Positions 28,001-51,500 of a stretch of DNA of 64,000 nucleotides are shown here, piece by piece. The first letter of the stretch is position 1, and each line of letters opens with the position of its first letter. The stretch comes from Bilabrum cf. latius (taxonomy: Eukaryota): contig OZ237749.1 of the NCBI GenBank assembly GCA_965178125.1, forward strand, positions 744,001 to 808,000. Direction: 5' to 3'. The notes below the pieces were generated by a model that saw only the letters and a program-made list of their open reading frames with translations, was not told the origin of the DNA and made no database searches. A program made the position numbers and the translations under genes.

Positions 28001-29219
28001 CGGCACGTCCTCGCGAGCCGCAGTAGCATCGGTGCAAAATCAGCAGCATCAGATAGGAATCTCTGGCACTCTGCCAGCGCTGCTTCCATGTACAGTCGAG
28101 GCAGCATCTCGCGGATGCAGGCCGTCTTGTACAGCCAGTTGCGGCATATTTCCCTGGCTTCGGCAGGCACATCCGAGGCCAAGAACGTGTCGGGGAGTTT
28201 CTGCGGGTCTGTTCCGGAGGCTCGACTCATCTTGGCGTTCGCCCTGTCTGCCGACTCTCGAATGCGGGCAAACACGAGCCTCCCAAAAGTGTCCAGCACA
28301 GAGGTGGCCAGCACGAACATGGTGGGGTACACCTCCGGACTGCCGCGAGGACGGCACAGGAGTTTGGCTGCTTGAACTGCAAGCTTGAGGCTGAGAACCC
28401 GCTGCCCACCCGCCCATGCCCGCCGCAGCTGGGCGTGCATCTGCTGGAGCCTCCCGACGATGTCATTCTGCGAGAGAGCGATGACCTTACCCTGGCGCCT
28501 CTTCTCGGCCCGATCCATCTGCTCGAGTCGGCGGCGGGCATCGTCAAGGTTTCGCTCCTCCTCCTTTGGGGCGTCTAATTCGCCAGCATCTCTCAGAAGC
28601 TCCGCTGAGATGCGCACAGGTGCTCCTCGCCCGCCTGCCGGAGGCCGCAGCATGCTGTTACGGATCATTGGCCACAGCGCGTCCAGCTTCGACGACGCAG
28701 ACAGTGCCTTTACCTTGGCTGCGCTAGTCGGACCAGCCGGAGTTTCAGCGGCACCGGCACCTGCGGCATCTTCGCGTGCCTTGCGTTGCGCAGCTCGCAC
28801 GCCGAGAGGATCATCCGGTCCAGATGTATCAGCCCCAGCACCAGAAGTAGCAGATGAGGATGCAGGTAGAGTCGCAGGCTAGGTATGAGGCTTTTCATTG
28901 GTTCCAGCTGCCAGACGACGACGCGCGTACGCTAGTCCAGCATCATTGAGAGGATGCGACACAGCACCTGACCGCTGCGATTCGTGAGCATCCAGCTTCC
29001 CGTCAGTATCGCAAAGACGGGGCTTCCTACGAGATACATGTATAAAAGCACATCAATTGGCAAGCGATTAGTCCGCTTTTGATGCGGAGAAATCAAGTTT
29101 GACGTCGCTGGATCTCACCATTGCGGCTCGGCTGGATCGGCACCCTAGGTTGCCTGAGTTGGGGCCTTGGGTGGTGTGGCAGCGGCAGAAGCAGGTGTAT
29201 TTGCATCGGAGGATGCCAT
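25054..29219 (-). CDS. VPS35L: Retriever complex subunit VPS35L (C16orf62), about 1,357 aa; exons 29219-29119, 29026-25054
   Basis: W|KPR...HPL N-terminus, YPTMFVLATSVLDTFGRLVFARI, AREICRNWLYKTACIREMLPRLYMEAAL, HTKRSATFSRACAAFLHVTVP, QADAML and VFPGHP. Fragments are joined across TAGs; ends in TGA. Confidence 0.9.
29027..29118 (-). other. Spliceosomal intron in VPS35L, 92 nt, phase 2
   Basis: TG|GTGAGA...CTCGTAG|G. Removes an in-frame TGA and rebuilds the conserved Trp. Confidence 0.8.
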
Positions 29220-29445: not shown

Positions 29446-32400
29446 TCACGACACAACACAGCAACCCCCCCCTCTCCGCACCGCGGACGCATTCGAACCT
29501 GCAGACCCTTGGTCATTGCCAGGGCCACCGACACGGGGCTGTTCTGCGGAGTCGTCGATAATGCTGGCTGCATCCTGCACATGGACCTTGGCGTCCGCAT
29601 GCATATGGCTAGCACCGGGAGGCCGATCGCCGCCCGGGCCGGTACCCGCTTGCGTGCTGTCCTGCATGTCCCTGCCCCTGCCCCTGCTGCCTGTGCCGGT
29701 GCCATCCTCGTCCTGCTCTTCCTCGGGTGTCTTGCCGCCCTGCGAGCCATCCAGCGTGACTCCTTGCTGCAGGCGTAGAACATGCTTCATCTGCTCCGCG
29801 TGTCGCCCAGGCGCGTCCAGTGCCGTGGGATACACCACGCTGCTCCCCCGGCGCCGCGATAGACCAGACTCATCCTCCGTGTTGGAAGACTCGTGGCTCC
29901 CAGTGCCCCCCTTGGTGCCATCGTGCTGCCCCTATCCACCTGAACTTGAGGATGACCCGCCCACCGTGCCTGAAGTGCCGCCCCCTCTGGTCTCACCTGA
30001 CCCGCTGCCGTCTGTCACGACTCTGGCGGCGGAATCCGGATCCTGCAAGTCGACACAAGGCACTTGCTGCGGCACCAGTGCCGGTTGAGAGGCTGCATTC
30101 GTGGATGCGGTCGAGAATGAATTCTGCCCGCTGGCAGCAGGGTCCATGGAGGAAGCGAGCGGCTCGCGCTGGTGGACCTTGGGGGATGAATGCCGGGCCA
30201 CTTCAATCTCGCCAGAGCTCCCGGGCATCCTCCCGTCGTGAGCTCGATGAGAGCCCGACAGCCCGGTATCATCCGTGCTCGTGCGCCCTGATGATGCGTT
30301 GGCACTGCCCGTTGCAGTGGTACCGCACTCCAGTGCGATATGCGGGGCGTGCCGCAGCGCCACCCCACCGAAGCTTGTCATTGCGGTCGCGGTTATGATC
30401 TGGTGCGCTGGAGCACCGGAGCTGCTGCTGCCGCGCTCCAAACCATCGCTGGGACTTGGTGCTCGCATACCAGATCCATAAGCTCCATGCCGATCGCCAA
30501 TCACGGATCGATCATCTGCAATGTCTACGAGCTACGTTGAGGGATTCAGCACACCAGCACGACTGGAACCACCATCCGACTCGACGGAATTTTGAGTGCG
30601 AGAAGCTTTCAGCGACCCGCTTCCGTTCTTGGCCGAGTCTGTGCTTGATTTCGTCTCATCCTATTCAGGTAGGCTGTCCAGCGGGTATGCAAGGTGCTCC
30701 GAGGCCTTCTGCATGTGGCCTGGTCGCTTGGTGTGTCGCGTTGCGGGACTCACTGCCTGCACTCCACTCTGCACGGCAGCACTTGTTCCACTCTCACCAG
30801 TATCTCCCATTGACACGTGCGTGCCGCTTGAATTGCTGCCAGTGCGACCAGTTATGTGCCCAGAAAGCCCATCCTCGGTTGGGCGACCACCCACTGCACT
30901 AGCCCTGGCGGCAGCTGGACCTGGAAAAGCGCTGGAATCGTGGGCTTGGTTTAAGATAGGCTCAAGGGGAGCCTGGCTGCTACCAAATCCGATGCGAAGG
31001 GCCCCAGATGTCTCCTGCGTGGACTCACCGGTCCCTGCTGCGACACCCCTCAGCCTGTCCATCAGGGGCGAGTCAACCCAGTCTGGGCTTGAGCTTACGC
31101 CAGACGGCTGGAGCGTTCCCAATGGCGGCGAGCTGGATGGCTCTCCTGCACCTACTACGAACCTCCTCACCCCATCGAGATCTGGGACGATACCATCTTC
31201 AGGCAGGTCATCGTCAAGGATGGCCATGCCTGGGGGCATTCCTGTGGAGGGTTTTCGCCGCAGTATCATGGTGTTGACTGCTCCTTTCCACTCCTGGCCA
31301 GACTCGCCAGCGGCTCGTCCAAACTCGGGGTCCGTCTGCACGTGACCAGACCCGCTGCGCTTCCTCCAGTTGTCTTCGGTGCTTGTGGCGTGCGAAGTGG
31401 CTGAGCCTATGACCGTGGGACCGAAATCTGCATCCCCGTCACCGGCCATTGGGGTGGGAGCTGCTCCAAGTGACGTGCTACCGTCCAAATCTAGCGAGTC
31501 GGAGCCCACGTGCGAAGAAGTTGACCTGCCCGGGTGCTTGGCAATTCTACCAGAGCGGCCATTGCGTCTCGAGCTCGCAGCAGAGGTGAAGCTCTAGTGC
31601 CTGGATCGTTTCGAAAACGGTGTTCCGGCTCGCAACGACCTCACTTGGGCCCCGTCAGACTTCCGCTTCACTTTCCTAGAGGAGGGATGACTGCCAGTGC
31701 TGTGCATTGAATCAGACACGCTCGTGCCTCCCGCAGTATTCGAGGCTACTTCTGCACCTGATGCTCCTCGGCTGGCGTTTGAAGCAGCGCGCGTAAGATC
31801 CATGGGTGATCCACCGTACGTGTTTACGTTCAAACCGGCCTTTCGATCGTGTGGCGGCGTACCCTGGGTCACATCGCGAGCTACCGTTGAGAGCAGGTGG
31901 AGTGCATCGTCTGGAATGGGCGACGTCCTCTCCTTGGAATTGCTTGATGTCCCTCCATTTTTCTTGGAGTTCGATCGGCTCGATGCAACTACCAGCAGCT
32001 CCTGTTTTGCAGCGGCCTACTGAGAGTCAGTTGCGGGTTTGGGTGCCTGGGCCTTGCTGTCCTCTGAGTGGCTCGAGCTGCCCGACAGACGGGATGGGCC
32101 CGAGTCAATGCTGAAGTCCCTGTCTGCGCTTCGAGCTAATGCTTCAATCTGTCTCGGTCTCTCTAGAACTGGTTTTGCCCTGGGGTTCGGGTCGGAGAGC
32201 CAGTTGGTTCCTATTGCACGCCTCCCTCCCTACCCGTCCTTGTCTTTAGACAGTGGAGTAAACGACGATTTTGTGCTGCCAGACTTCTCGCTCTGCTGCG
32301 AAAATGAGCCTCTCTCTACGTGATCGATGTTATGAATCGAATCGGCAGCCACTGGGGCCCCTGTTGCAAAATCCCTGGTCGTGTTTTCAGAGGACGCATA

Positions 32401-33951
32401 CTTTGCGGTGCCATGCGGCGACTGCACCAGCCCTGCGCCGTTCTTCCTCCACCGCTCCGAGGAATCGCTGTACATACTATCGCCTTCAATGCGCGGAGGA
32501 CCAGCCGACTGCGCTGCCACCAAGGGGTGTCGCTAGCCCAGCTGGCTGGTGTGTCCGGGTGCATGCTGACTGCTGGAGGCGAGGGCGACACCAGGGTCGT
32601 GCTATCGACTCTCACCACCACCATTGGACTCAACTGCAACTCCCTTGGGCTACCCACGCACTTCTTCGAAACTAGAATGCTGCGGGCTCAGGGTCCTCCT
32701 CGGCGACGCGTCTGCTATTTGGTCCTCTCTCGAAATCGACCGGCGGCGACGACCCCTGGCTATCCCGGGGGGACCTGAGCTAGTGTCAGTCGCCGTGTCA
32801 GCATCAAACTCGTCGAGGAGCTCGCCTACCCGCCGGCCTTTGACCCGTTTCTAGTTGCTGTCCCTTTGCTTCCGCCACGAGGATCCTGCCCCAACACCTC
32901 CCGACTGCTCCGGTGCGGGGCCTGGCCCAGCTGCACTGGCGCTTCCACCACCCTTGACCCACTTGCCGCTGCTTCCAGAGCCGCCACTGCCAGTGGGAGT
33001 CACCGAGGGCAGCGATCTCTCAGCGGGCTGCCCGCTCGCACTGGCTGCAGCATCATTCATGACGTCAGACATGCGAAATTCCCTGCCCGGTGGGCTTGCC
33101 AGAGCCTTGGGATCGGTCTATCCGGTGGCTGAGGGACGTTTCGGCTGCTGTTTTGGCTTGAACGCCGGTGGAAGTCGCGGGGCTATGTGTGTGGTTTCTG
33201 GTTTCTCGTTGTGCAGAGCTTTTCCCCAGTTCAAATAGCCGCCCTGGCCCTGCCTCGGTCCGTCGTAGAGGGAGTCCATGGAGGGAGCTGCCGTGGGCTG
33301 CCCAAGGGTGCTGTCCCCAACCTGGTATGCGGTACTGAAGGCGCCACTAGAGCCGCCAAAGGACGTTCCACCACCCATCGACCCGCCGTCGTCGTCCTAT
33401 GCGAGCATAATGCCATCCCCTAGGTCGCCAACGCGTCGGCGGTTCTTCGTTCGATACATACCATCCTGTGAACACAGCAGTGGAGCAACAATTGAGGCAA
33501 TAATCAGCTTTGCTAGGTAGCAGGGCAACATTAGCAAAGATACGTGGCATGCTGGGCCGCACAAAAAAACACTCACAGGATTCTACAGCTGCTAATCTCG
33601 CCACGATCTACCGCCACCACGAGCCTGAGAGTCCTGGTCTGGCACATCATCTGCACAAGGACTTTAAGTGAATTGAATGCCAATCATCAAGATTCAACCG
33701 GCATATCACAACTGTGATCGAGCGCAGCACGGTGTGGTTCTCAACGCATGAGTGCCGCTTGCCTGTTCATGGCACACGTGCAGCAATGCAGAGCTAAATG
33801 CCAACTTCGTAATTCTATACTCACTCTTAGCCATCGACCGAAGCATTTTGGCTCGCTCCATTGCATCGTTGGTCACGTCAGCTACGAATGTTGACGTTTG
33901 GGTTGGTTGCTTGGCTTTTTTGTCTTCCGTTCCTGCTTCCACCTTCTCCAT
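29446..33951 (-). CDS. Ser/Gly-rich, likely disordered protein of about 1,400 aa with a C-terminal CCVVS (CaaX) motif; exons 33951-33825, 33650-33577, 33465-29446
   Basis: Seven track ORFs lie in one minus frame and are joined across TAGs. Ends RRGGGCCVVS-TGA. Two phase-compatible GTGAGT...CAG introns (33651-33824, 33466-33576). The 5' structure is less certain. Confidence 0.7.
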
Positions 33952-34297: not shown

Positions 34298-37200
34298 TCA
34301 AGCCAACGAACCTCCCACCGCACGGGCGAGCTATTCATCGTACCTCTGAAGTGCCTACATGCGCCTTCTTGCCAGCACCGCCACACCACGGCTTGAAGAT
34401 CGCCGACTCATTTCAGGCCCGTCTCCTCGGGCCTGGGTGCTCACAGCCACACCCCTGCTCGCACCAACAAGCCCCGCGAGACTCCCAACCTGAGGGGGCC
34501 CAGGCAGAGATTGGCTGGCTGAGCCTTCTGAATCGATAGACATAACCTGCTGCGACTCTCTCGGGACGTTGAGACCAACTGAAGCCGCGCCGCCTCTGCT
34601 TGGTGCTCCACGTGCACGTGCACTTCTCTGCGGGCTGCTGCTGCTCGATGACAGCGCGGCGAGGCTGCCCTGGGCCTTCTTTGCATGCACAGCACGAGAC
34701 CGAGAATCAGGACGAGGGCCAGAAAGAGGCCGGTGCGAGCTTATGCCTTGGTCTGACGGGTCCCGTTTACTCCTTAGCTTTTCTTGAGCTGCACGCTGTG
34801 TGATAGGGTCTGCACCAGTTGACACGAACGCAACCGTATCCCGTCCTGGGCTTGGTGGCTCGGCCTGGCCACCTGTTGCACGCCGGGCCATCTATTTGGC
34901 CTGATGGCGATCCTGCTGGCCCAATTGCGCGCTGGCCTTCTCCATGCCCGAGCTAGTGACATGCCTGCTGTACTTGCCGCTGGATCGCCCAGCAGTTGGA
35001 TTCTGACGCTCCTGGGGTCGGACCACCAAATCGTACGGCGAACCGCCCGCACGGCTTGCGACTGCACGAGATGACGAATGCAAAGCCTTACCGCCGAGCT
35101 CCACGACCGGACAGGGAGCACAGTCGAGTAGAAATGGGTGGGACAGTGCTTCCAGAGCAGAGATTCTGCTTCGAGGGTCGTAGTCCAGGCAGCGAGCCAA
35201 GAGATCGACAAGGATAGGCGGGGCCAAAGCCTCGGGCGCAGAAGAAGGAGCAAGTAGTGAGCCTCCTGACGTGCAGCCCTGCCTTGCCTTCGAAATGATC
35301 GAACGGAGCTTCCGCATGAGCGCCGCCGTCGTTGTCTTGGAGATTGTCGCATGTCTCGAAGGTCCTGCTAAACACGGCGCCACGTGACTGAGAAACTTGG
35401 CACTTCGCACCGCTGCTGCAGTTTGACTTGCCTTGGCCGTACTACCCCGCTGCCAAAGATCAGTTGGCATGCGACCAAGCACTCGCTACATGCGCACCAA
35501 CAGTGCAAGGCGCTCCACTCGTTGTGCCTGACCGGCTGCCCCAGCTGCCATGCCTCGTGCGATGCGGATATCATCGGCGTTTGGAAGGAGTATCCCTGCA
35601 GTACCCGCACACAGCTCCAAGAGCACAACTCCCACCGCAAATACGTCGCATGACGGGCTGATCGACTCACCAACTACGATCTCAGGTGCACGGTACCCAG
35701 CCGGCTGCAACTGAAAGTCAGTGGAGTACATTTTCCTGCCTGATCGCGAGAACGAGTTGCCCAAATCAGCCAAGACCACGGAAGGATCGCCTCTGCACGA
35801 CCGCAGCAGTTCCTCCGATCGTGCCGCTCGCGACTCGGACGACGCGGTCGCCAGCGCAGACTCCCGCAGGGCCTCGAGAGCCCTGTCGCACTCCCGAACA
35901 CCCACAGCCGCTGGTGCCCCTTGCAAAAGTACTGCTCGCATTCGGCCGGATGCATCTTTTGCCTTCGACTCTAGCCTCTTTGCTTCCACGAGCTCCTTTT
36001 CTGCGTCGAATTTCGCGATGAGCGCCTTGGCGGTGGCCACGCCAGAGAGAATGTTGTCGGGCTTGACATCAGCGTGCACGATGCCACGTCTAGCAAGGTG
36101 CGCCAGCGCGGTAAACAGGCGCCTCGCTATCTTTGATACAGCCTGCCAGCTGCAAGACGTGGAGCGACGCCCGGGACGCTCTGCGATTGGACGAGCTGCG
36201 CTGCATTGCGAGGCAGCTGCAGTAATGCTTGCAGCGCCTGCTTTACTTGTCCCTGGCTAGCTGCTCGCGAGGTGCTCTGACGGCTGCAGGTCGTACACCT
36301 CCAGCAAAGACGGCCCCCTGAGCTCCATCACGATGCAAAAGTGGCCAAAGTACTGGAAGCAGTCCAAGTACTTTACAAGAGACTAATCAACGCTATCTCG
36401 CATGGGCAGCAGGCCTGCTGTCTGGTCGATGCGAGGAGGCTGCCGGGAGCTGCTGTCAACAGCACTAGCACGACCCTCGGCGTCGGTGGTGCCGCGTCCA
36501 TCGGTCACGGTAGAGGCAGACTGCAGCACGCCACCGACGTGCCGCTGCCTCACCTTGGCGCTGCTTGGTGAAGACGCAGGCGGCTCCGGCTCGAAGAGTC
36601 CTATCGACTTGCGAGGTGGTGAGGGAGATGCTTTGGTAATGGATGATCCATCCTCGGCCGACGGACCAAGGCCAAGATCCGGACTCCGAAGGCTGGAAAC
36701 AGGCTTGCTTTCGTCGATCCGGCGGCGCTTGCCAGGTCTACCAGGACCACGGGAAGGGCCCACCGCTTGAATGGGCTGCGGCCGCCGGCGACCCATAGGC
36801 ATCTCAGGATCATCATCCTCCTCTTCGTCTGAGGACTCCACTGCTTGCCGCGTCGAGACGGCTTGTCTGGAAGAGCTCTCAACGCTGCTGTGACCAGTGG
36901 GAGATGGTAGCATCTCCATTGTACCGTGACTTCGCTTCGCACCGGGCGAGGTAACATTGGCTTGGACGCGGCTGGAGAGAAGCAGGGACGATTTGGCATC
37001 TTGGCCTGATGGCTAGGGCTACTAGACCGGAACTTCATGGCCTATTGGCGTGCGTCTGGCGGCATGCATGCGAGAAAGGCTGAGTAGACCTCTACGCCCC
37101 GATTCTTTAGTGCTTGTCGGGCTGGGTATCGGGGATGAAGGCACATGCTCCCCAGGCGAGCTGACCGCCTTTGAAGTTACATCAGAGGCACGGCTTGGAG

Positions 37201-37984
37201 TAGTAGTGGACCCTAAGCTACCGAGGGTGCTCGTCACAGAGCGCTTTCGACTCGCCGATGCAGCAGGTCTACCGCCGAGCAAGTCGGTCAAGGTGCTCGA
37301 ACGAGGAGATTTAGTGCTACCACTTGCAGCGCTACCCAGCGATGTTTCAGCTTCTTTATTGATCTTCGAGGCTACACCAACCATGCTTTCTGCTGTGAAC
37401 CGAGCGAGAGCCTCCGTACGTAATTCACGCACCGATTTCGTCGGTGACGGCGAAAGCCAGTTGGCCAGCTGCGCCCACTCCGCGGCGCTCCATTCACCAC
37501 ATCCTGCTTCTTGCATTCGGCAGACCTCCTGAACACCAATTTTACCGAATTGGCGGTGCATGACCTTGATGGCGACCATCCGAACCTGTTCGGAGGTTCT
37601 CGTGAAATCGGGCGCTTGTGAGTCCGGCAAAGGTGCAGGGCCTGGTTGGCTAGTCTATCTTGGAGTTCTGCTACCAACAAACGGACTGCTCCACTCATCA
37701 ATCGCTTGAAGTGTGATGCTGAAAGCACCCTGGCCGAGCACTCCCACAATACGGTACCGACCTGCCAGCAAAGGATACTAGTCGGCAAGTTCGACGCGAA
37801 ACCTTCCAGATTTAGCTGATACTCTAACGTTTGTACCATAGGAGCCGTGCTGGTGGCCCAAGTTTGTGTGCACATGCTTCAATCCAACGGTGAGTGCGTG
37901 GCCAACGCGAATCCGATTCCCAATTGTCTGCCGTGCTGCCACCCTTGTTGCCTCCTGGCCGGTAGCATAGGCCTAAAATGCCAT
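34298..37984 (-). CDS. CMGC-group (DYRK/HIPK/PRP4-like) protein kinase with large low-complexity inserts, about 1,228 aa, apparently intronless
   Basis: GRYRIVGVLGQGAFS, VAIKVM, IGVQEV, LVKYLDCFQYFGHFCIVMELRG, IVHADVKPDNIL, VVLADLG, QPAGYRAPE, CDVFAVG and LDYDPRSRISALEALSHPFL are all in one frame when TAG is sense. Ends in TGA. Confidence 0.88.
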
Positions 37985-38154
37985 CAGATTAGGGAGTGCA
38001 ACGTCTCGCCGATGGACTCATTCTTGAGTTAGAATGCACAGGAATTTCCTACTGCATCTTTCCGGGTCTCGAGCCAGTTCCGGTTTAAAATACAAAACAA
38101 TAAGTAACCCTGTTGTATCTGTGCAATCATGCATGAGTAGCGCTACACCAGTGC

Positions 38155-39321
38155 TCACTGCCTATCATTGCCAGCCTCCACCTCCGCCGCCCACTCGCTC
38201 GCTTCCTTCTCCAGGGCACGCAGGTGCTCCCCCACACGCGCGGCAGCCAGGCTGTAGTACTTGTTCCGGAGTTCCAGCTCCCTGTCAGACATGGGAAGGC
38301 TGTAGGAAAGGGGACTGGCTAGGGGTGGAGGGTCAGAACTCGGGTGAGCTAGCACGATATCCCGCCCCTCAGGCGGTGACATGGCACCATCGCTGCCGGT
38401 GCCAGCGCCGCTCATGGCACCCCCCTGTGCAGCAGAGCCTGGGCCATCGGTTCTTGGACTTGAAGCAGCCACTGCACTAAGCTTGCCACTACCACCACCG
38501 CTCCTTCTCTCCCCTTCGCTGCCCCGCTCAGGCAGCCTCGCAGCCTGTATCATCCGCACCTCTTCCGATGCCTCCCTGTGGATGAACCCCTCCTTCTCCA
38601 TCTCATCGCGGTATTCCCTCCGTATATCATCCATGGGGACAGGATCACCCACAAACACCCCAAGCTGTTTCATGAAAACGAGCGGGATTGGAACCTTGGT
38701 TCCGCGTGGCAAGACCTGCTCCATGCCGCGATGATAGAATGGCAAAACGATCGGTGCTTCTCTCGCATCGCATACGAGCCTCCCTACGCCGGTACGGATT
38801 TTGCCCATTTCGCCAATCTTTCGTGATCTTGTACCTTCGGGAAAGAAGTGCACCCATTCCCCTTCGTCTAAGCGACGCACCATATCAGTCATCCAGCCCT
38901 ACATCAATCCGGCGCCCCGCTGGACCGGCAAGACCTTTCCCTTTCTAAGAATGGTAGCCACCGCAGTATTCTTAAAGCATCTATCGGTGGCGCAAGGAGT
39001 GTACCGCATTAATTGTGGCTTTAGGCACTATTCCCAGCTGATCAACGTGGAAAGGGCACCCGGGTCATCGATCGCCGTCGTATGGTTGGAAACAGTCACA
39101 ATCCCTCGCTTCTTCAGCTGGCGCTCCTTATCGACTAACGCTTTCTAGAAGACCTCGGCTCGCCTCAATTCAGTCTTGTTGAGGATATGCATCACAAACT
39201 TGGAGTACACGCCGAGGAACCCAATCATGAGGCGGCTAACCAGGTCTTTCCCATCAGAATCACTCCCAGTTTTGCCTGCATATAGATCTGGATATGGTTT
39301 ACCTGGTTTAGGTGCGGCCAT
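38155..39321 (-). CDS. TAZ: Tafazzin-family phospholipid transacylase, 388 aa
   Basis: VTVSNHTTAIDDP (HxxxxD), MRYTPCATDRCF, VLPVQRGAGLM*GWM, EWVHFFPEG and PIVLPFYHRGM. TAGs at 39145, 39028 and 38899 are read through; ends in TGA. Confidence 0.92.
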
Positions 39322-39562
39322 ATCGCAAGGGCCACTCGAGCCAAGCGAGGTGAAGTCCGGCAGGTGTCTCTGTTGTAGTGGCTCCGGATTTCGCCAGCCG
39401 CGGCCAAGGTGCATGCTGCAGGCTTGTCATGCGGTCAATTGGTAGGACTCGGTTGATGCGAGACAATACGTGATGCCCAGCGCTGCACGGTATAATGGTA
39501 TTCAAGGCTGGATCAAATTCGAGCCACACAAGGGCCAAGGTAGACTACCGGGGTTCTTGCCC

Positions 39563-42500
39563 TCACCCAGTGCCGCGGAAACTGCCCGACTTCTTTAGCA
39601 TCCTGCGCATCTCAGCGTTCGAAGAAGAAGCCTTTGGCATCCCCATGCCTCGGTTTGCCGTTGGTGTCCTTGCGAACCCAGCCCCTACACCAGCCCCTAC
39701 ACCTGACCCCCGGGGCCCACCCATGCCCCTCGGAGAACCCATCCCCCGAGGGCCTCCCATGCCCCTGTGCGCACCACCTCCTGGCAGTGCACCAGGCCTC
39801 CCACGAGACCCTCCTGCCACGAAGGAGCCGGCGCCGACCATCCGTCCTCCAGCGAATCCAGCCCCGGGCCGGGGAGAGCCCATGCCCTTTCCCTCGGCTC
39901 CCGCCCTCCCCTGATGTCGCTGCTGCAGGCGGCTGCCAACTGCGGACGGACGGCGGTCTCCCAACCGCCCCCCGGCTCCGGCAGCAGCATTGTACGGCTC
40001 CATACCTGCCTGTATCTGCGCATGCGTGCCTGAGGTGCCGAGCAGCTTGCCAGCGCCGGCGCCACCGCGCCTGCCCGGTGATCCTGGGAACCTCTTTCCG
40101 CCCCGATTGGCAGCGCCGAAGCCCTCTTCGCCGATGCCACCAGGGTGAGATGTCATCACAAGCTCATCGTGCGCTCCAAAATTATCACCAGAGCTTTGGC
40201 TGGATTGGGTAGGGCCCGCTATGTCGCGACCCGCGCCCTGCCTGCACCTCACGATCAGAAGTGCGGCAATAATGACCACGACGACGCAAGCTATCGCAAT
40301 GCAGATGCCCGCGGCGGCCCAAAACTCGCCGTCCGTCCAGCCATCTCCGTCCCCATCTGTGTCGCCGCCACCAGACGAAGTGACCACTGTTCTGACGCGC
40401 TCTGTCTTGGGAGCTGAGAGCAGAGCCACGCCCGTGGTGCTCGCTCCAGCTTGCTGAAACCTGTCGTCGGTGTTGATCTGGGTGGCCAGGCTACCGGAAG
40501 ATGCGCTGGACTCCACGGCATCTGCCACGTTGTCTGTCACGTCCGATCCCGCTGAGTCTCCAGAGAGCGAGGTTGAGAACTGCACGTTTGTGCCCTGCTG
40601 CAGCCTCCGCCTACTGCCCCCCGAGGAACCGGCGTCGATGGCACCGATGCTGATGTTGGAGGCCGACATGCCCGACCGCTGTTCCTCAGGAAGAGCGGCA
40701 CGCACAATGCCGGCCACGATCTCGCGGAAGGCCAGCTGCAGATCCTAGGATGCAGAGAACACGACGCTGTCCAGGCCAGTCAGCTCCGTGTCGAACTCAA
40801 CTTCCGCCGTCGTGCTGTCCTGCACGATGACAACGGTCGAGACGGGACAGCTTGGGGCCGGGCTCTACGCGGCAGCGGCAGCGCTGTTGGACGGCGACGG
40901 TGAAGCAGTACTTGCTGGGCTGGCAGTCGGGCTGGTGGCCGCTGGAGAGCCCACCACAGGTGAGCTGGACGCGCTAGACCCGGGGCTTTGCGTCACGGAA
41001 GGCGCCATCGACGGAGACGGCGTGCTGCTCACCCCAGCGCTGCAGCTGTCCGTGTAAGCGATCGTCACGATCAGGTCATCCGCAGCCACGGAGCACCCAT
41101 CCGTCACGTAGTATCGGAATACGTACGTGCCAACGTGGGTGGGCACAAACCAAGCGCTCTATCCCGCTGCATAGAATGTCATAGTTTCAGAACCGACCGA
41201 CACAGAAGGAGGCGAACCAGGCAGTGGCGCGGGGACCTGAGCTCCAGGGGGAACAGTCTCAACTGCCCAAGCCGAGGAGAGCTGCCTAAACTGCGAGGGT
41301 GCATCCGCCAGGTTTGAAACTCCAAGCGATGCGATGCCCGCCAGGCTAACGTTCGACGGCAGGGCATCGACGCCGGGTCGCAGCAGGATTGGCGCCACGG
41401 CAGTTGCCGCCGCAGACGGTCCCGTGGGACACACTACCTCGACTCTGAAGGTGCCGGTGGCCGGGGTGCTGCACCCATCGGATACTACAGCCTATACTTC
41501 GTAGCTACCGATTCCGTCCGGGACAAACTGAGCCAATCCACGCGTGGAACTGGACTGGACCCCACTGGCGGCGTCTACGCTAGTGGCGGACGCGATTTGC
41601 AGCTCGGCTGCTCTCGAGAACCCCATCGCGGAGGAGCCAGGACGGCGCACCCTTGGCAGCGTGGGCGAGTCATACAGGCTCCAGGAGTACGTCAGAGCAG
41701 AGGCTGGGGTGTCCGCGTCTGTGGTGCCTCGTGCGTCGAGTCCAACGGTCGAACCGAGCGTCCACACGCCCGAGGTCAGCCCCGTGCCCCTCTCTGCCTC
41801 ATCAAAGTCGTCGTCGCCAGGTCCATCGGAAAGCGGGGCAGAAATGGTACCGGAAGAGACCCTGCTGCTTTCATCGTCTGCTTCGATCTAGACCACGGGT
41901 GACTGGCCGCACGCAACCGTGATGCGGACGGTCTCAGTTCGAGTAGCGGCGGTGATGCCAGTGTTGCTGGAGCCTGCCATGCTGGGCGTCTCGGTGGTTG
42001 AGATTTGAAGCACGTACGTGCCTGCAGCATGCGGGAAGAAACGAGGTGACAGCACGTCAGCACCGTTGGGAAACAGATCCTGCATGGTCGCAGTGGCAGC
42101 ACCAGCCGGCTGAGAGACAACCGACCACTGCACGGAGAGCCCCAAGTCGTCGAGGGTCCTCGCCTGCGCCGGCGTACCCACGAGCTAGCCACGCAAATCG
42201 AGGTATCTCGTCTTCCAGAGGACAAAACCAGCGCCTGGAGTTAGCGACAGCGAGTAATCAGTCCCTGCAAACAGCATAGGCATGTCAGCTCCCACCACCA
42301 CCACTGCGTCTCCCTCGCTCACATAGCAGCCATCGGACGCAGACACCCTTGCCACGTACACGCCCGCCACATCCAACACCGCCGTTGCGGTGATTGACTC
42401 GGAGAAGACACCTTGTGTACCAATAGACGCCGTCTCAGAGCCCAGGGCTGGGGCATCTGCTGGGGGAAGGAAGCCATCCAGCCTGCTAAGCGGCGTGTTC

Positions 42501-45500
42501 TGGTCCACACCAGGCGCACCAATGTCCGTGACGAGTCTTGAGTTTGATGGCACCTGAGTCCAGCGCCATCTCCACAGCCTAGGTGCTCCCTGGGGGTGGT
42601 TAACCACGTCAGCTGAATTTGAGAGGCCAAACGAGACCTCCACGGCTTCGCCTGCTGCTGTAGACACCGTGCCAGCCTAAGGGGCAGGGCTTGGCGTAGG
42701 CAGCGTAGCAGAACCGTCGATCCCGCTCTACCCAGTCTGAGCTCCTGCAGCCACGAGCAGCGGCCCACTTGGCAGCCTAGTATGCACCTGCACGCCGGAA
42801 CCAGGCTCCAGGATGGAGAAGCTCTCCTGCGTGACGCCAGTCATGATTCCACGTACTGCCCCGGTTTCGAGCACGGGCCCATCGGCGCACACCGCCGTGA
42901 CCCGCACGGTGTCGGTGTCCACAGAGCAACCATCGTCGACTGAGATCTGTAGCTCATACGTTCCCAGCCCGTCTGGTGTCAGGGTCGGCATCGACGTTGA
43001 GCTGCTGCCAATGCTGCTGGTGCGGATGTTCGATGCTGACATTGACTAGATTGATGCTGCGTGGCCCACGCGGGACACTGCGGCTGGACTCGCAGCAGCA
43101 CCACCTGGTTTCCGCACAGATGGTATCGACAGAAGCATCCAAGAGTAGATCAATCCATCTGGCGACTCCTCATCGGTCGAGGCCGAGCCGTTGATGCTGG
43201 CTGACGTGCCCAGCACCACCTCGATATCGTCGCCTGCATCTGCCCTTGGTCTCGACGAGCATTCCACCACCAGCCTTGCGACACCAGAGCGGAACGCGCA
43301 GCCAACGAAGGCCTCCACTCTCAGCTCGTAGCTACCAGCGATTGAAGCAGTCACTGCAGGCCGCAACACACCACTATTCTCGATCGTAGCAGACCCGCCC
43401 GCTGGTGTGCTTATCACGGCCCACCTCAGCCCAGTCACGCCGATCGTCTGCTCTTCCGCTTCGCTGAGAGCAACCCCGGTGGAGCTGACTAGTCCGACTC
43501 TATCGAGCTCAAACCGCTGCGCAATGGGAACTAGGTACGAGCCGCCAGTGTCCAGCGATGGCGCCTCTTCCTGAATGCTCCACTCGAACTTGAGCTGGGG
43601 AAGCGCCGGTGCCGCATCTGCTGCGCTTCCCACCGAGTCTGATGACGAGGGTCCATTGTAGTAGGGGCTTGGAAGCCTGTTCTGGGAGTAGCTTTGGCTG
43701 CCAAGGTAGGCTGCATAGTCAAACGCACCCGCGAGATCAACCCATGCCCCGACCGGGACGGTGGCGGACTGCAGCTGCACTGGTGGCGTGGGCGCTGGGG
43801 AGGCTCCACCCGTTCGAGCAGTTGCGTCTGCAATCCTGGACCTTAGCCCGCCTGTAGCAGACACTGGGTTGGTTTCTGGGGCGGCACAAAGCACGTGAAT
43901 GTGTACAACGTCTCGGACGCTCGCACATCCATCGGTCGCGATCAGAACTAGGCTGTAGGTGCCGGTACGCCGTGCAACAAACGAGGGCATCAGCGTGGTT
44001 GCGTTCATGATGTGCGGTACGTCCATGGAGCCAACGCCGAGGCTGAATACCCCACCGGTGGAGTTGCCTGGACCACCCAAGCTTGCCGGAACTGCCTCAT
44101 CGCCGTTCTCCGCGTATGGTACCGATGTGAACTCCCATCGAACAGCCACTGAGCTCGACGCGTTATTTGAAGCGTCTGTCATGCTGCCATTGCCCATCAT
44201 GCTTGCGTTGCCTATATTTTCCTACACGGAGCCATGCAGCTGGATAATGATGCCGTTCTCCTCTGAAGCACCGATGACTGGCAGGCTTCCGTCATCGCTG
44301 ACGTTGCCGGCTGCGAGCACAGTCCCTGCAGTGCCGTTGGGACCATCCAGGGCTACAGCACCCGCGGTTGCCCAGAGCACCTCCAGGTTGTCCCCCGCAT
44401 CGATCTCGGGAAGCTGAGCGCATACAGCCTCCACCTGCATCTCGGCCGTGGAAGATGAGCATCCGTCCGACACGGTGACGCGGAACCTGTACGTACCCGG
44501 GATATCGGGAATGAAAGTGGCCACAGCATTGAAGGCATCTCCGATAGAAAGGCGCTGGGAACCGATCGGCGATTCAATCAGTTCCCACGTAAACGACATA
44601 TCGTCGTGTCCCCACGGGGTCACGCTCGCATCAAGAGTCGCAGTAGCATTGAGCACCGCAGCGGGGCCGATGAAGCCACCGTTGGTGTCGGCAAGGTCGC
44701 CCGTGTCAGCGGACCCGCGGGCAAGCACCGGACGCAATGCGTCGCTGGTCAGCGATCTCGGGGCGCGCAGTGCAATGGGAATGAGCATATCAGCTCCATC
44801 GCCAGAAGGGCGACCAAATTCACCGGCTACATTGGCGGTTGCCTGCTGCAGACTGGCAGCGGAAGTCACGCCGCCGGCACCCGACACCTCCGTCGATGAG
44901 AGGCCAGCTCCCACTCCAGCAAAGCTTGATCCCAGTACTTCATCATCGTCTGAGCCAGAGCTTCCCAGGATCTCACCACCGGCGCCATCAGATGATCCTG
45001 CTCCGAGCAAGGAGGCTCCAGTCAGCGGCACGGTAACCACAGATTCCGAAACTTGCGCAGTAGGCCCAGCGTTGCACGTTGCCACCACCCTTACGGTAGC
45101 AGTAGACACGCCGCAGCTCGCCCTGTCATCGGCAGCGTCAGGAGAGTCTGAAGCAGTTAGTGTGAATTCGTACATGCCCTCCATATCTGGTTCAGCCACC
45201 GCGGCTCCGGGGAATGCTCCAACACCCAGAGGCAGGGGCGCTGGGGCCACCCGGGAGCCCCCTACAGCAGCCAACCGGGAGCCAGTTGGGGCGGCGGTCA
45301 CTCTCCACCGATAATACAAGCCTGCTGCCGTGGCACCCGCCGCTGCGAGCTCAGGGTTGAGAATTACAGGGGCAAACCTGGGAGCAACAGGACCGGCAAT
45401 GACTCCGTCACTGGATTCAAGGGCAACAAGCGCGGATTCTCGCTCCATCGGGCTCAGCCTGGCCAAGTCAACGCTGTTGAGCAGCCCTGGATACCTTCCC

Positions 45501-48500
45501 CACCTGGATACGAAACTAGCCGAGCCGAACGAGTCCTCCGCCGCCATCGAGGCTGCATCTCCTTCAGCGACAGCAGGGGCGTTTGGCATTGTGGCCGGCT
45601 CCCCTGATTCTAACAGGCTCATTGCCCTAGCACTGGCGAATGCAACCGGCGGTGGTCCGCAATTTGCAACGACAAGCACATTGGCGAAACCGGACTCGCA
45701 CCGCATGCCGGCTTCAGCCGGAGGCAGCTCTGCAAGTGGAGTCGACAGGTCACGTCCAGGTGCTGATGACGCAAAGACACGGAAGCTGTAAGTCCCGGGC
45801 ACAGTAGGGATGAAGTACGCAGTGCTGGACGAGCTGTTACCTATCGCAACACCATGGCGAGCAAACTCAGCCACGTCAGACACGCTGGGTGCCGTCGCAT
45901 CTGGATCCGCAGCAAGCACGACATCAGCCAGGTACGCCGATCGTGCCGCCAAAATAGGGGCACTTACGACCTTCCATTGGTAGAACATGCGGGTGCTGGA
46001 TAGCGCGCTCGATGCGAGCGCCCCGGTCACCTGAGCAGAGGCCCTCATGGTCACGCTGCTGGCGAGCATGGCGCCACGGAGGCGATTGACAGCTTCGCGC
46101 ATCGCGGTTGCGCGGGTCTACCCCAAGCCAATGGCTCTTTGAGCAGTCTCGTGCGCTGCACGAGCAGCCTGTGCTCCTGTCCTGGCCTAGTCCATCGTCA
46201 CAGTGATGGATGACTGCTGTACCGTCACAGCCGGGGCCGGCGGACACTTGACTTCCACCTCGACGTCTAGAGAGGCCTCGGAGCAGCCGTCGTGGACGGT
46301 CAGACGGATCTTGTACATGCCGTACGCATCCGGCCGGAACATCGTCACGGCGTCGGGGTTTATGCGCCCCGCGGCGCGATGTGCCTCTGGTCCGCCGCCC
46401 AGCGATCGCAGCAGAGAGATCGCAGCTTCTGTCCCACCTGCGCCGGCCATGTCGTACGAAACAGATGCCGAGGCTACCTGAGCCGCGAACAAGCTGTTCG
46501 ATGTTGCATTCGGGTGCATGAGAGCGGGGCGCATGCTCTGTGAGCCGGTGGGGTATTCTACGACCTGCCATATGTATCGCAGTGGCTGAATGAAAGAGAA
46601 ATCGTCTCGTGCAAGGCCGAGGGCATCTTGCGTGGCATTGGCCGGGTCAGCCTGGTCGAATGACATGGATGCGTTGATGGTGATCTCAGGCATGATCACT
46701 GCACCGGTGCGCTAGGACGAAGCAACAGTAATGCTGTACGTTGCTGTTCCATCCGCTGCCCCATCGTCCTCGAGCCGCAATACGGCAGATTCCTGCGAGT
46801 CCGATGTCTCGCTTGCTCCAGGCGCATCCAGAGAATCATCGGCCTCGGAAAGCACGACATCAAGCACCGGCACGGGCGTGGGATTGCACTGAACTTCCAC
46901 CGTCATCTCGCGCTCGATCGCGCGGCAGCCATCCCAGACGCTCTGCACGATAGTATACACTCCCACGCCTGGCAACTCCAGCTGGGCGCTATTGTTCGTG
47001 GAGATCACTCCAGTGGACGGCGCCTCGTCAAAGAGGCACTGGCCGCCAAAGCTCGAGTGCCGATTGGTTATATCAACTAAAAATTCCTTAGCCCCCGTAG
47101 CAGATCCCGGGCTTTCCTCATATCCGACTGTTTCCTCCGGGCACTCCTAACTCAGCAGAGACCACGACAGCAGCGCCGGCACGGCAGTTAAGCTGCCGTT
47201 TGCGCTTGCGTTGAATTCGATCGTGACAGACCTATTCATGGCCCCACCCTCACTGAAGTCGTCGCCAACGTACTTGATGAAGGTGTGCGTCTCGGGAAGA
47301 GGTGGGAGGTCTGTGGTAGTCATGGGACAGACTACTCGAGCCGTCACATTTCCGCTCACATTGGTGCATCCATCGGACGCCAGAAAGCCCACGGTCCAGA
47401 CCCCAAGCTTTGTGGGGGCAACAGAGGCAGACGCAGCACGAACGGAAGCCTGATGTTCAGTACCATTGCCAACTAGGCGAGTCTCCCCATTGTCCATATC
47501 AGGCCCGTCTAGGAGCATGAGGGCACTGCCAGGCTCATCACCAGCGATCTGGGCAATCGTGCCAGCGCCCGGACCCGAGTAGACTCCCTCGGACTCATGG
47601 AACGCTGAGGTCCACTCCACGTACAAGGCATCGGTGTCAAAGTCTAAGGCTTCGATGGAGAAGTTCAGCGGAGGGATAGTCGACGTCGCGACATCCACCA
47701 CTGACACGAGATCGCTACGTGACAGCAGTCGCGTCAAGTTCAGCACGGGAGCATCGTTACATGCCGAGGCCACGATTGCAACGTCCACCCCCAATCCGCT
47801 GCCATCCGAGGCATTCACGCGTATCATAGACATACCGTGGTGCTCGGTTGTGAACATCGGGCGCTGAATCTTGCTTGCAGGCACTTCAGGCGATAGCGAA
47901 GTACCCGTCTTGACCTCTTCAGCATCGGCTGGTACTAGGGTATCAACGTATTCGAGCAAAAAGGAAGTCCCGGGTAGCACTCCAACAGAAATGGAGGCGT
48001 TGGAAGGCACGCCGGCCGACATGCTCAGCTCTGCAGGTGCCAGTGCAACCTGATGAGAGCCAAGTGCGCCCTCCAGTAGGTGCTCAGACGTGACCACACG
48101 GCTTGAACTAGCCACGGAGAATGAGCCGGACGACAAAAAGGACCCGCTGGCAGCTCGTAGTGCCAAGAAGCGATCTGACTGGTTGGAGCCAGGCGGAGAC
48201 AGGGGACCTGCGGCATAGCCCATGAATGCCCATTCCAGGTCGATATCCTCTTGATTGCTATCAGAGTCTGTTGGAGAGTCTGATCCCAACTGAATCGCAT
48301 CAAACGCCTGCATCCCAGGCACAGGTAGGCCAGTGTCGGCAGTGTCAGTCTGCCATTGAGAGAGCAGCACGTCAATGTTGTCATCATCATCAACATTTTC
48401 GGAGTCATCGACCTCGCCGGCGTACTGGTCCCCGTTGTCCTCTGCAACAAGGGCAGTTTCGTTGGCAGCCTGCGGATCTGGGGCGATGCTTGCCTCGGCA

Positions 48501-51500
48501 AGTAGCGTTACATTCGTTCGTACGACGGTGCAGCCATCAGTGACCGTCACGATGAACATGCTCTCGCCCAGCACCGAGGGCACAAACTCCAGAAAGAAGC
48601 CGTCGTGCGCCGAGCTGGCAGGCAGGCGCAGGCCCGGGTCAGTGAAAGACACGTTGGGGGCGGGCACAAGAGCGGGTACGGGGTTTGCCGGCAACATGAC
48701 GCGCGCTGCGACATCCGTGCTCTCCAGCGGACCCACGAAATCCAAGTACTCAAGGGTGAGGTTCATGCCACCCAGGTCGCCCTGAAAGCCAACGGTACCC
48801 GTCGCGTTGAGAAACACCGGATTAAATGCCCGAGAAGATGCATTCCAGCGGGTCACCAGCTCGCGAGAGGTCAACACAACAGCAGGGGCCGCGGGACACT
48901 GGGACACCACCTCAACCTAGGTCGAGTCATCCGAGCAGCGATCGCTGGCCTTCGCAGTGGCACCCCACCGCCCCAAGAACCTGGGCGTCAGCGACGCAAC
49001 GCCAGATGTACCGCCGCTTGCGAATGCGGCTGAGTCGCCCAGCGTGATGTTGTCAGGTGCTAGCACCTCGGGCCGGAACGAGTACGCGTTGATATCGTGC
49101 TCTGGCGATCCTTGGGCCGGGAATGGCGACAACGGGACAGTGTCAGCCGTGAAAAACTGGACAGAGTCAAGCTCCCAGGTGAGGTCCAGGCTATCCTGAT
49201 CCGCGTCGGTGCTCGTAGTCGCGTTAAGTGCCACGGAAGAGAATCCCAGGCCCTCCCATCGGCTCGTGTACGTGGACTCAGTAGACCCTGCATCTGGTTC
49301 CGCATTACAAGTCACCACAAACACCGCATCATCGCTGCCGTACCTGCAACCATCGTCAGTCACGTACACTACGCGATACATGCCACCGGCCCGGGGTGTG
49401 ACCCGGATCGTGTCGATCAGAGCTACCGAATCATTATTCATAGTCTCGCTCACATTGGTCCAAAGCGGGGACTATCCGCTACCGGAAACCGTGATTGTCT
49501 CAATCTCAAAACGACCGCGGCCGAGCAGAGCAGACGCGTTGTAAAGCTATCCTGAGTGCCCACCGCCATTGACAGTCACAACCGCATCTACGAGTAGCTC
49601 CTCGAACACGGTTCCTGTCCAACTCACAGACACCGGATCACCAGTCAACGGGCTCCCGGTCATGTTGCTGCGCAATACAAGGCTGACCTCAGGTTTGGCA
49701 GGACAGGTACTGCGTATCACAACCGCTTCACGAGCAACGGAGCATCCGTCCGAAGCAGTCAGCTCAACGACTCGGCTACCAGCCGTGTACGGGGTGAAGG
49801 TAGCTACGGTACCATCACCTGCCATGGCAGGCACGCCGCCTTCAGCTTCAGATGCGTTGCCCAGCACTGGATCAAGCACAAACGACCCATTGGTGTCGTT
49901 CCGCAACTGTTCAGGCAAATCATCACCCGTAGTACCGTTGGACAAAAGGGGCTGCACGAACGAGCCGTCAAGCCCCTCGGCCAGATCGCTTCCAGGACTG
50001 GCGAAAGCACGGCCCTAGGCAGATCGCCATCGAAGGAGCGTGGTACCGGTCTGGTTGTCTGCCACCTCTACTTCGATGTCTCGAGAGCCAAACCCTTGCG
50101 CTGGTCCCATCCAAGCCAAATCAATGACATGTGTTACCCCTTCACCGAAGCCGAGGCTGGACTCAGTGCTCGTATGGAGGAATCGGATCGCAGGTGGGGC
50201 GTCGCAGGTGACCTGCACAGCAATGCTGTCGAAGCTGCCTGAGCAGCCGTCGTCGGCGGATACGCTGAAAACGTACGTGCCAACATGGGCGGGTCTGACC
50301 AGCTGCCTGGACGCATTGCCACCTGCGATGGCAACAGCCAAAGGTGCCAGCTCGTCTTCTACCAGCATGAGGATGTCGGTTGGGATCTCAGAAGTTGTTC
50401 CAGTCACTGGCATACCCTGGCCTTGGTCAATATCATCCTCGCCATCCGCGAAGGCAATCGTTGAAAGCAGCCCCTGCAGAACCTCGCCATCAGTGGGCGT
50501 TCTCATTGTGCCGTTGATTCCAACCAGCAGAGACTCATGCACGTACAAGGCACCATTGGGAGGCACAACAAGGACATCGAGCACGCTAGCATCGTCAGCA
50601 ACTGCCTTCGTGCTGTCTGGAAGCACTGCAGGGTCAAGTCCGATGGATCCATCCGGCACGAAGGACTCATCCGGTGCGGCGTACGACACAAGCTACCAGT
50701 GGAACCGCAGCACGTCGTGCTCTACGTCATAGCTCTCAGTCGCATCCAGGACGATTGCGGGTAGCGTGCCATTGGAGTCGGGGAAATCCAGCGGCGTGTA
50801 GTTGGCTGGCAAAGTTCCATTATTGAACGCCGTTGCATTGTCCATGTGCTACTGGGCCTCCTGCTCCGCCGCGGCGACAGCCTCAAAATCTGCGCCATAC
50901 TTCACAGCCAAAGCCTCGTCTTCCGTGCCTGCTTCCCACCCTGCCAACTGAATAGCAACAAGTTCGTCACTTGCATCGATGCTTCCGTTTGTGCCACTTT
51001 CAGCCGGCCCCGCTCTCGCTCTAGCCATCGGGGTACTCGAGCACGCCGAGATGACAGCAGCGTGCACTGTGTCAAACGAGCAGCCATCGCTCACCTTGCC
51101 CTCCAGCAACCAAGCCCCAAGGCGCGCACCGGCAACCAGTGCTTCTGAAGCAGCGATTCCAGCATCCAAATCGTACCCTACGCCGCTGAGGGGGCTGTCA
51201 GACGAGCCGTGAAGCAGGTCAGAGGGGGACCACCCAGGCAAGTCAAGGTCAGCGAACCCGGCATCGGCAGCCACTTGCGGGGGGAGCACCTCGGGTACAA
51301 AGTAGGAGCTTTGATCCCTGCGATGGAGACCTGAGGCAGGGTCTGCATGGTCAGCGGTGAAACCATGGGCGTAAACGTTGCCCGATGCATCCATGGTTCC
51401 GTTTGAAAACGAGTAGACGTACGCATCGGTAGCCACCGAATCTCCGAGCCAGTCGACAACCGACGAAGGCATGATCGAGTCAGCAGAGACCATCGGCATG

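Follow-up and report, generated by a model that had tools for sequence, protein, structure and literature searches.

UAG as a probable third glutamine codon in the nuclear genome of a bicosoecid-like stramenopile

Introduction

Nuclear genetic codes in which UAG stands for glutamine while UAA continues to terminate translation have been described for the fornicate Iotanema spirale and for the ciliates Hartmannula sinica, Trochilia petrani and Protocruzia tuzeti (PMC5304391, PMC11687900). Here we describe what appears to be the same codon table in a 64,000-nucleotide stretch (C15:744001-808000, referred to as the window) of a eukaryotic assembly of 48.6 Mb in 111 contigs, and we consider the UAG codon together with the tRNA that would read it and the release factor eRF1. 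In our reading, UAG would be a third glutamine codon in the nuclear genome of a bicosoecid-like stramenopile, with UAA and UGA retained as stops, UGA being the one used by most genes. We regard this assignment as very nearly certain, and we give a probability of about 0.9 to the whole explanation, which comprises the code, a single tRNA-CUA, its charging with glutamine, its origin from tRNA-Tyr (the step we hold less firmly) and a changed eRF1.

The described systems resemble the present one to different degrees. Like this genome, Iotanema reads UAG as glutamine, stops at UAA and UGA and requires a tRNA whose anticodon is CUA (PMC5304391), but it is an unrelated fornicate in which UAA rather than UGA is the dominant stop, and its tRNA was only predicted, as a derivative of tRNA-Gln(CUG) (Panek et al. 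2017, PMC5304391). In the three ciliates UAG alone was likewise reassigned to glutamine (McGowan et al. 2024, PMC11687900); the suppressor tRNA went undetected in H. sinica and T. petrani according to the same source, whereas a complete tRNA-CUA gene is found here, in a stramenopile-like genome of 58% GC. UAG is also uncoupled from UAA in the rhizarian exLh and in phyllopharyngean metagenome-assembled genomes (MAGs) from TARA, where it encodes leucine, and in Scotinosphaera, where it encodes serine (PMC5304391, PMC11687900). A tRNA-CUA was reported from two MAGs as well; it derives there from a leucine tRNA, with no change of amino acid, and here apparently from a tyrosine tRNA. The more widespread code of Tetrahymena, hexamitins and ulvophytes shares the reading of UAG by a tRNA-CUA but extends glutamine to UAA (PMC5304391), which is a stop here. 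The 'genetic code 15' of crAss-like phages has the same codon table, in a phage and with bacterial release factors (PMC9523058).

In the full-text literature, in which subscription journals are thinly covered so that an earlier report is possible, we found no account of a changed nuclear code in a stramenopile, and the accessible portions of a 2024 stramenopile review and of PMC10120064 contain nothing on this subject. What we present is a known codon table in a lineage for which no report was found, together with its tRNA, whose likely ancestry was unexpected.

Glutamine at UAG positions

The window has an overall GC content of 58% (53-68% in 2 kb bins). When TAG is read through, it is tiled by twelve long and nearly intron-free open reading frames (ORFs), and all ten that are complete end in TGA. 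A preliminary description, made from the letters of the window, had proposed that UAG encodes glutamine. This proposal is strongly supported by the residues that homologues carry at TAG columns of dyneins and eRF1, by TAG being the sole in-frame stop type, by spliced contigs, by the tRNA-CUA and by an exchange of CAG and TAG between relatives.

Comparing homologue residues at TAG columns with those at CAA and CAG columns, as the preliminary description had suggested, gave a glutamine-like profile in the dyneins. In the dynein-2 heavy chain (on contig C10), aligned with 120 homologues, the mean Gln share over 51 well-covered TAG columns is 0.234, compared with 0.215 for CAA and 0.214 for CAG, and the mean Tyr share at TAG is 0.001. 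Where at least 90% of the homologues agree, Gln stands opposite TAG in 7/8 columns, opposite CAA in 8/13 and opposite CAG in 8/13. The other dyneins were compared with 150 cluster representatives, which were found with a query translated with TAG as Gln, itself one paralogue of many, and match at no more than 63% identity. Among 36,217 columns, 106 contain TAG, and their log-likelihood favours Gln (+90.2) over Glu (-37.9), Lys (-65.2), Ser (-76.4) and all other residues, which score lower still; the lead over Glu, the next residue, is 128 log units. The same procedure returned the standard residue for 61/61 sense codons, and at columns conserved to at least 80%, Gln was found at 11/13 TAG positions.

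Single-gene alignments agree with this picture. A TAG in eRF1 falls on human Q44, a position with Gln in 90/95 homologues, and TAG 59063 in the gene for the mitochondrial ribosomal protein uL4m aligns with Gln in three structures. Tyrosine, a candidate prompted by the body of the tRNA-CUA, is ruled out by the dynein-2 share given above and by a mean share in the other dyneins of 0.018 at TAG, as compared to 0.012 at CAA. Codes that assign UAG to Leu, Ser or Glu were rejected as well, because TAG columns are not enriched for those residues. PRP8 contains only 4 TAG as compared to 129 CAA/CAG and was set aside as a test gene, and the TAGs of a cyclophilin were discarded as evidence because their columns are unconserved.

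Within the window, the strongest column belongs to the following gene:

38155..39414, minus strand: tafazzin gene (PF01553) of 419 codons, with in-frame TAG at 39145, 39028 and 38899 and a TGA stop

The preliminary description had paired the tafazzin TAG at 38899-38901 (minus strand, RGAGLM[TAG]GWM) with a Gln of animal tafazzin. This was borne out: 40/42 aligned homologues have Gln at this position, one has His and one a gap, in an alignment that holds 42 of 46 matches, the 4 weakest being omitted. The codon is unaltered in the contigs of two sequencing runs (X1 and X2), both of them intron-free. The other two tafazzin TAGs, at 39145 and 39028, lie in unconserved columns with Gln in 1/42 homologues each.

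The remaining arguments drawn from the window are less informative, although all coordinates claimed for them are correct (TTC39 at 20185 and 20374, a PKD repeat at 56204 and FKIG[TAG]RW at 62224). The PKD parallel loses its force among 23 motif matches that read R (7), T (5), Q (2), S (2), TAG (2) and others (5), and the supposed mastigoneme parallel fares no better, with E, F and Q in the three repeats that lack TAG. In-frame TAGTAG doublets are present at 7562, 12941, 17531, 61687, 1009 (minus strand) and 37019-37024, with a further TAG at 37013, and they exceed codon shuffles of the twelve window ORFs (6 vs 1.35, p 0.0015). In a larger sample outside the window only 1 was counted vs 4.7 expected; the doublets are a local feature of the window, absent as a general one, and were dropped as evidence for glutamine. 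The adjacency of TAG to CAA/CAG, proposed as a further test, behaves in the opposite way: it fails within the window (6 vs 10.5 expected, twelve ORFs) but succeeds outside it, with 85 TAGs beside CAA/CAG vs 59.9 expected (p ~0.001), so the signal needs the larger sample. That sample consists of the 163 of 194 ORFs that passed a strand filter, for which dyneins and PRP8 had served as the training set and which drops some genes with low GC3 (GC content at third codon positions). The tafazzin column therefore is the sole strong argument among those first put forward.

A tRNA whose anticodon is CUA

A search with RF00005 retrieved a candidate for the decoding tRNA:

C23:907607-907679, minus strand: tRNA with the anticodon CUA

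The gene is single-copy in a DNA search of the genome and folds into a perfect cloverleaf (-25.6 kcal/mol, z -2.7), and its contig is a host contig that holds TAG-bearing genes. A pattern search for anticodon arms with CUA, UUA, CUG and UUG yielded, as clean nuclear genes, one CUA, two Gln(CUG) and one Gln(UUG), and no tRNA-UUA. Two further candidates were rejected: a second CUA match on C7, found only at a relaxed ARAGORN threshold, has an intron and poor stems, and no tRNA underlies the TTA-like match on C35. In viral contigs there was no exact match to one pattern, which is a weak test of a viral source. The single nuclear tRNA-CUA would read UAG but not UAA, since the latter would require a C:A mismatch.

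Glutaminyl-tRNA synthetase (GlnRS), which is encoded on C33 and aligns over its full length with the human enzyme, probably charges this tRNA, because the tRNA has lost Tyr determinants and carries elements of the bacterial Gln set. The eukaryotic Tyr determinants are A73, C1-G72, G34 and U35 (PMC9976931 Table 1), and the tRNA-CUA lacks A73 and G34. From the bacterial Gln set it carries G73, G2-C71, G10, a pyrimidine at 34, U35 and A37; G73 is also found in the genome's own Gln-UUG. Work on amber suppressors lists G73, G10, pyrimidine 34, U35 and A37 as Gln elements, and one class of the suppressors constructed there inserts Gln (PMC1483225). Suppressors built on non-Gln bodies accept Gln too, among them yeast amber tRNA-Tyr mutants that take a little of it from E. 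coli GlnRS, but they differ from the present case in being engineered, in using the E. coli enzyme and in their often faint charging (PMC1483225). Together, these suppressors and the identity elements make Gln charging plausible, in line with the protein columns. In E. coli, the su3 tRNA-Tyr is reportedly switched to Gln by the classic A73G change.

The body of the tRNA-CUA points to an origin that is different from its proposed charging. At 57 structurally fixed positions it agrees with Tyr(GUA) at 39, followed by Gln-CUG (34), Glu (33), Gln-UUG (32) and Trp (29), and the mean over 24 non-Tyr nuclear tRNAs is 27.6/57 (sd 3.4). In sequence, tRNA-Tyr was the closest among the 25 distinct nuclear tRNAs compared plus Trp. 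The comparison was made without the Leu and Ser one-step neighbours; Leu and Ser tRNAs are expected to have long variable arms. We therefore consider it the likelier course, with considerable room for doubt, that the tRNA-CUA descends from a duplicated tRNA-Tyr(GUA) that would have acquired G34C, A73G and a Gln-type D stem.

The best-surviving alternative accepts the same code and differs at this step only. It holds that the tRNA-CUA came from tRNA-Gln and owes its likeness to tRNA-Tyr to chance, to convergence or to an exchanged acceptor stem, and we take it seriously as the lesser possibility. It has the precedent cited in PMC5304391 and the short path from CUG, the anticodon of the second-best match, to CUA, which is one change. 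The D stem is identical to that of Gln-UUG (8/8, compared with 3/8 for Tyr), and G73 is shared with the same tRNA; similar D stems occur in the Glu and Trp tRNAs of this genome (7/8 each), and the feature is thus not specific to Gln. Against a Gln ancestry stand the acceptor stem, which matches Tyr at 12/14 positions, the two Gln tRNAs at 6/14 and 2/14 and any other tRNA at no more than 6/14, and the anticodon stem, with 8/10 for Tyr compared with 6 and 4 for the Gln tRNAs. In addition, the tRNA-CUA aligns with Tyr without gaps at 50/73 positions and has the five-base variable loop of Tyr, whereas both Gln tRNAs have four bases.

Several points, besides the D stem, tell against charging by GlnRS after a tyrosine ancestry. 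The tRNA-CUA retains the Tyr determinants C1-G72 and U35 and has none of the bacterial Gln elements U1-A72, G3-C70, G36 and U38, and eukaryotic Gln determinants are absent from Table 1 of PMC9976931. Since stems are paired, the 12/14 of the acceptor stem really represents 6/7 pairs. Moreover, the tRNA survey is incomplete, as 63 candidates out of 780 received a score.

Several near-identical tRNA-Met(CAU) genes (L033, L043, L046 and L052-L054, on C3, C5, C7, C9 and C25) have the same acceptor stem as a tRNA-Pro(UGG) that lies nearby at C3:1096678; C73 is the last base of some of them, and one carries U37. These features suggest further recruitment of tRNA genes, or pseudogenes.

eRF1 and its environmental relatives

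A PF03463 search identified one eRF1 gene and one further gene, which we take to be pelota-like. The eRF1 was compared with up to 107 aligned homologues, with the human numbering set on NIKS, and several residues beside the GTS and NIKS motifs are rare: N30D is shared by 0/87 homologues, I35V by 0/94, S60V within TASNIKS by 1/98, F117P by 0/105 and K130H by 0/107. Through these changes, eRF1 has probably lost or weakened its recognition of UAG. The protein is divergent throughout, with 61-68% identity to all but a close relative, so that the rare changes are candidates and not causes.

This step has evidence against it as well. The four-exon eRF1 retains GTS, NIKS, E55, S70 and YxCxxxF, and one of its own TAGs lies at L69, where 6/100 homologues have Gln. 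Both T32 and L69 have been tied to UAG recognition (PMC5304391); T32 is intact here and L69 is changed. In contrast, Iotanema carries T32G in a GTS motif that is intact here (PMC5304391), and Cafeteria keeps both TASNIKS and L69. In exLh, eRF1 is altered at the same Leu69 but to alanine (L69A vs L69Q). L69Q was rejected as the cause, because those 6/100 homologues have it too, as do many metagenomic eRF1 sequences that contain no in-frame stops.

The eRF1 gene contains two in-frame TAGs in the domain that recognises stop codons (L001:1418-1420 and 1585-1587), of which the first stands at the very end of an exon. If UAG were poorly decoded, less eRF1 would be made, which raises the possibility of a feedback loop.

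Two distinct environmental relatives of this eRF1 were found, P0168 and L175, with 88% and 93% amino-acid identity. The metagenomic L175 is 81.7% identical in nucleotides and 92.6% in amino acids across 230 codons of eRF1. It ends in TGA and has TAG at one codon where this genome has CAG, which suggests that the code is shared with this relative. P0168 has Glu at the same column. Five further metagenomic eRF1 loci (L199, L200, L228, L229 and L243) have in-frame stops at conserved columns and are likely to stem from other recoded eukaryotes.

Glutamate at moderately conserved columns

The column data hold one signal that disagrees with a purely glutamine-specific UAG. At moderately conserved dynein columns (60% threshold), Glu stands at 7/25 TAG columns compared with 24/396 for CAA and CAG combined (p 0.001), and two PRP8 TAGs seem to face P and H in the human protein. 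A mild excess of Glu columns at TAG relative to CAG was also noted across the dynein loci L135-L174. Such an excess would be expected if UAG were ambiguous, being read mostly as Gln and partly as Glu (or Tyr) by a mosaic tRNA that is mischarged. The genome's own paralogues (5/15) and dynein-2 (3/16) show it too, although the sets overlap; the L175 TAG lies in a column with Glu in 108/120 homologues; and the retained C1-G72 pair would suit a mischarged tRNA. We nevertheless judge ambiguity to be quite unlikely. The mean Glu share in the dyneins is nearly equal at TAG and CAA (0.138 vs 0.132, rank test p 0.34), the excess over CAA alone (5/42) has a p of 0.11, a Tyr signal is absent, and this genome itself has CAG at the L175 column. 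Changes from GAG to TAG at tolerant sites can explain the Glu excess, and this is how we read it.

Stop codon usage

Across 91 Pfam matches to DEAD, ABC and dynein AAA_6 domains, one of the ABC matches being on a bacterial-looking contig, 47 in-frame stops were found in 32 matches. All of them are TAG, and neither TAA nor TGA occurs in frame in any of the 91. Accordingly, both other stops were rejected as sense codons: reading through TAA gains little ORF length, and reading through TGA opens many frames in DNA as GC-rich as this, yet the domain matches contain none of either. The code in which both UAA and UAG encode Gln (table 6) was rejected on the same grounds, as TAA is a stop and no tRNA-UUA was found. 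TGA terminates 97 of 110 closed ORFs and TAA the other 13 (75 and 10 of the 85 that remain after the strand filter), and TAA is the terminal stop of eRF1, dynein-2 and an axonemal dynein. TAG makes up 807/7957 Gln codons (10%), a share that drops from 25% to 5% with rising GC3 (rho -0.68, 151 ORFs).

A dual meaning, in which UAG would encode Gln inside genes but stop translation near the 3' end of some mRNAs, fits the intact core motifs of eRF1. Its test is indirect, because the ORF scans did not permit a TAG stop. Within that scope, TAG occurs within the last 30 codons of 12/85 closed ORFs compared with 9.6 expected, and among the final 50 codons it amounts to 1.8-8.2 per 1000, compared with 5.0 in the parts upstream of them, which indicates neither excess nor depletion. 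Two dyneins continue beyond a late TAG to a typical C-terminus. We consider a dual meaning very unlikely.

UAG in mature transcripts

Four sequencing runs (X1-X4), kept as contigs, were compared with the window at 19900-39899. Contigs of X1, X2 and X3, which come from two studies, skip GT..AG introns that are retained in the X4 contig, and they thus have the character of cDNA; the assembly may have been made from X4. In X1 contigs, 47/47 TAGs of six window genes are present with no other letter, 32 of them in four intron-skipping contigs. UAG is therefore present in mature mRNA and is neither edited nor intronic. What weighs on the other side is that none of the runs is recorded as RNA and that contigs hide rare variants.

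A standard code, in which the TAGs would be damage in pseudogenes, mistakes of the assembly, ends of introns or sites of RNA editing, could appeal to the introns, which end in YAG, to the ORFs that include intron sequence and to foreign contigs in the assembly, but we give it almost no chance, given that TAGs occur in essential genes that the searches found once (eRF1, PRP8, dynein-2), are the only in-frame stops in the domain matches, do not differ among runs of three studies wherever these cover them, are kept in spliced contigs and fall on Gln columns.

Affiliation of the organism

The organism is very probably a bicosoecid. Cafeteria roenbergensis is the best named match for both dynein-2 and eRF1. 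A quick eRF1 tree (35 of 121 rows) places the sequence with Cafeteria and Bicosoecida sp. CB-2014 in a set of 15 rows with 99% SH-aLRT support, apart from oomycetes, a labyrinthulid, a green alga and opisthokonts, and a quick dynein-2 tree (32 of 121 rows) places it with Cafeteria in a 97% set of 5 rows. This placement is tempered by the long branch of the organism in the dynein-2 tree and by the fact that both trees are quick ones without bootstrap. Identity to Cafeteria is low (66% for eRF1, 49.5% for the dynein-2 motor region), which indicates another species or genus. Cafeteria roenbergensis/burkhardae also differs in its ~70% GC content and genome size of 34-36 Mb, and the portion of that report available to us mentions no altered nuclear code (PMC6972860).

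An 18S array of 1700 bases is located on C12. The mitochondrial contig (C111, L012-L027) has ~21-28% GC, uses TGA for Trp and contains a tRNA-UCA, and its recognisable genes nad3, nad5 and atp1 contain no in-frame TAG. Mitochondrial UGA as Trp with a tRNA-UCA has been reported for Cafeteria and Cafileria (for Cafeteria, PMC6972860).

Gene content of the window

Besides tafazzin, the window contains the following ORFs and genes:

1..3765, minus strand: ORF left open where the window starts, 16 in-frame TAG (ORF scan)
6104..19351, plus strand: ORF of 4415 codons with 51 in-frame TAG and three TAGTAG doublets (ORF scan)
19516..22248, minus strand: main exon of TTC39/Iml2, 4 in-frame TAG, TGA stop (PF10300, E 2e-56)
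22903..24948, plus strand: cyclophilin gene (PPIL2-like), 6 in-frame TAG (Pfam scan)
25054..28668, minus strand: ORF of 1204 codons, 10 in-frame TAG (spliced contig, 0 other letters)
29446..33464, minus strand: last exon of a low-complexity protein, 12 in-frame TAG (spliced contigs)
34298..37984, minus strand: protein kinase-like ORF, named from motifs alone, 12 in-frame TAG including the cluster at 37013-37024
39563..56767, minus strand: PKD-repeat protein of 5734 codons, 29 in-frame TAG (Pfam scan)
58286..59248, minus strand: mitochondrial ribosomal protein uL4m, 3 in-frame TAG (Pfam scan)
60025..64000, plus strand: EGF-repeat protein, 10 in-frame TAG, open at the window end (Pfam, EGF domains only)

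A Pfam scan of 8 window pieces named 7 of them, as GFO/IDH/MocA, TTC39, cyclophilin, acyltransferase, ribosomal L4, EGF and PKD. The TTC39/Iml2 gene has an upstream intron near 22470-22555, and its spliced contig shows no other letters at the TAGs. Three of the six cyclophilin TAGs lie in the domain itself, at columns that were uninformative in three alignments. The ORF at 25054..28668 had no Pfam match in the 589 residues scanned; it may be VPS35L-like. The low-complexity gene has introns at 33465-33575 and 33651-33824. The last ORF had been called mastigoneme-like in the preliminary description, and its EGF domains alone were confirmed; at 60025-60800, two in-frame, stop-free introns seem to interrupt its EGF modules. 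Between the PKD gene and uL4m, the 1.4 kb at 56848-58280 hold short frames only, and a small spliced gene for a membrane protein on the plus strand is possible there. Intergenic spacers are very short (24945-25060, 34297, 38132-38160), and the two convergent genes at 22903-24948 and 25054-28668 have contigs that adjoin at 25010-25016.

Two contigs of the assembly appear to be foreign. C95 (17.9 kb; L004, L059, L060), a small contig of simple and telomere-like repeats, carries a second type of 18S (1802 bases, 78-83% identical to the C12 array) and looks like a co-cultured eukaryote, presumably a dinoflagellate-like one. C82 (L115), which has 44% GC, carries an operon for an ABC transporter of bacterial type and lacks in-frame TAG, is a probable bacterial contaminant.

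Conclusions

Only a handful of lineages are known to have nuclear codes in which UAG and UAA differ in meaning, and most of these codes were recognised in transcriptomes or partial genomes that lack the decoding tRNA. The contiguous genome described here yields the code, the tRNA, GlnRS and eRF1 together, and Cafeteria offers a relative with the standard code for comparison. We put forward only tentatively, at somewhat less than even odds, the joint proposition that this is the first altered nuclear code of a stramenopile, common to a small bicosoecid clade and captured by an identity-switched tRNA-Tyr (G34C, A73G, Gln-type D arm) while the core of eRF1 stayed intact. If this is true, a natural amber suppressor would have been recruited across amino-acid families.

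An origin of the tRNA-CUA from tRNA-Tyr would mean that the customary assumption, by which a suppressor arises through mutation of a duplicated tRNA for the amino acid it inserts, does not hold in general, and it would make the eukaryotic Gln identity elements testable. In addition, eRF1 supplies a few candidate residues for a loss of UAG with UAA and UGA retained. For the lineage as a whole, databases built on the standard code truncate the genes, and the entries P0289 to P0291 are such fragments.

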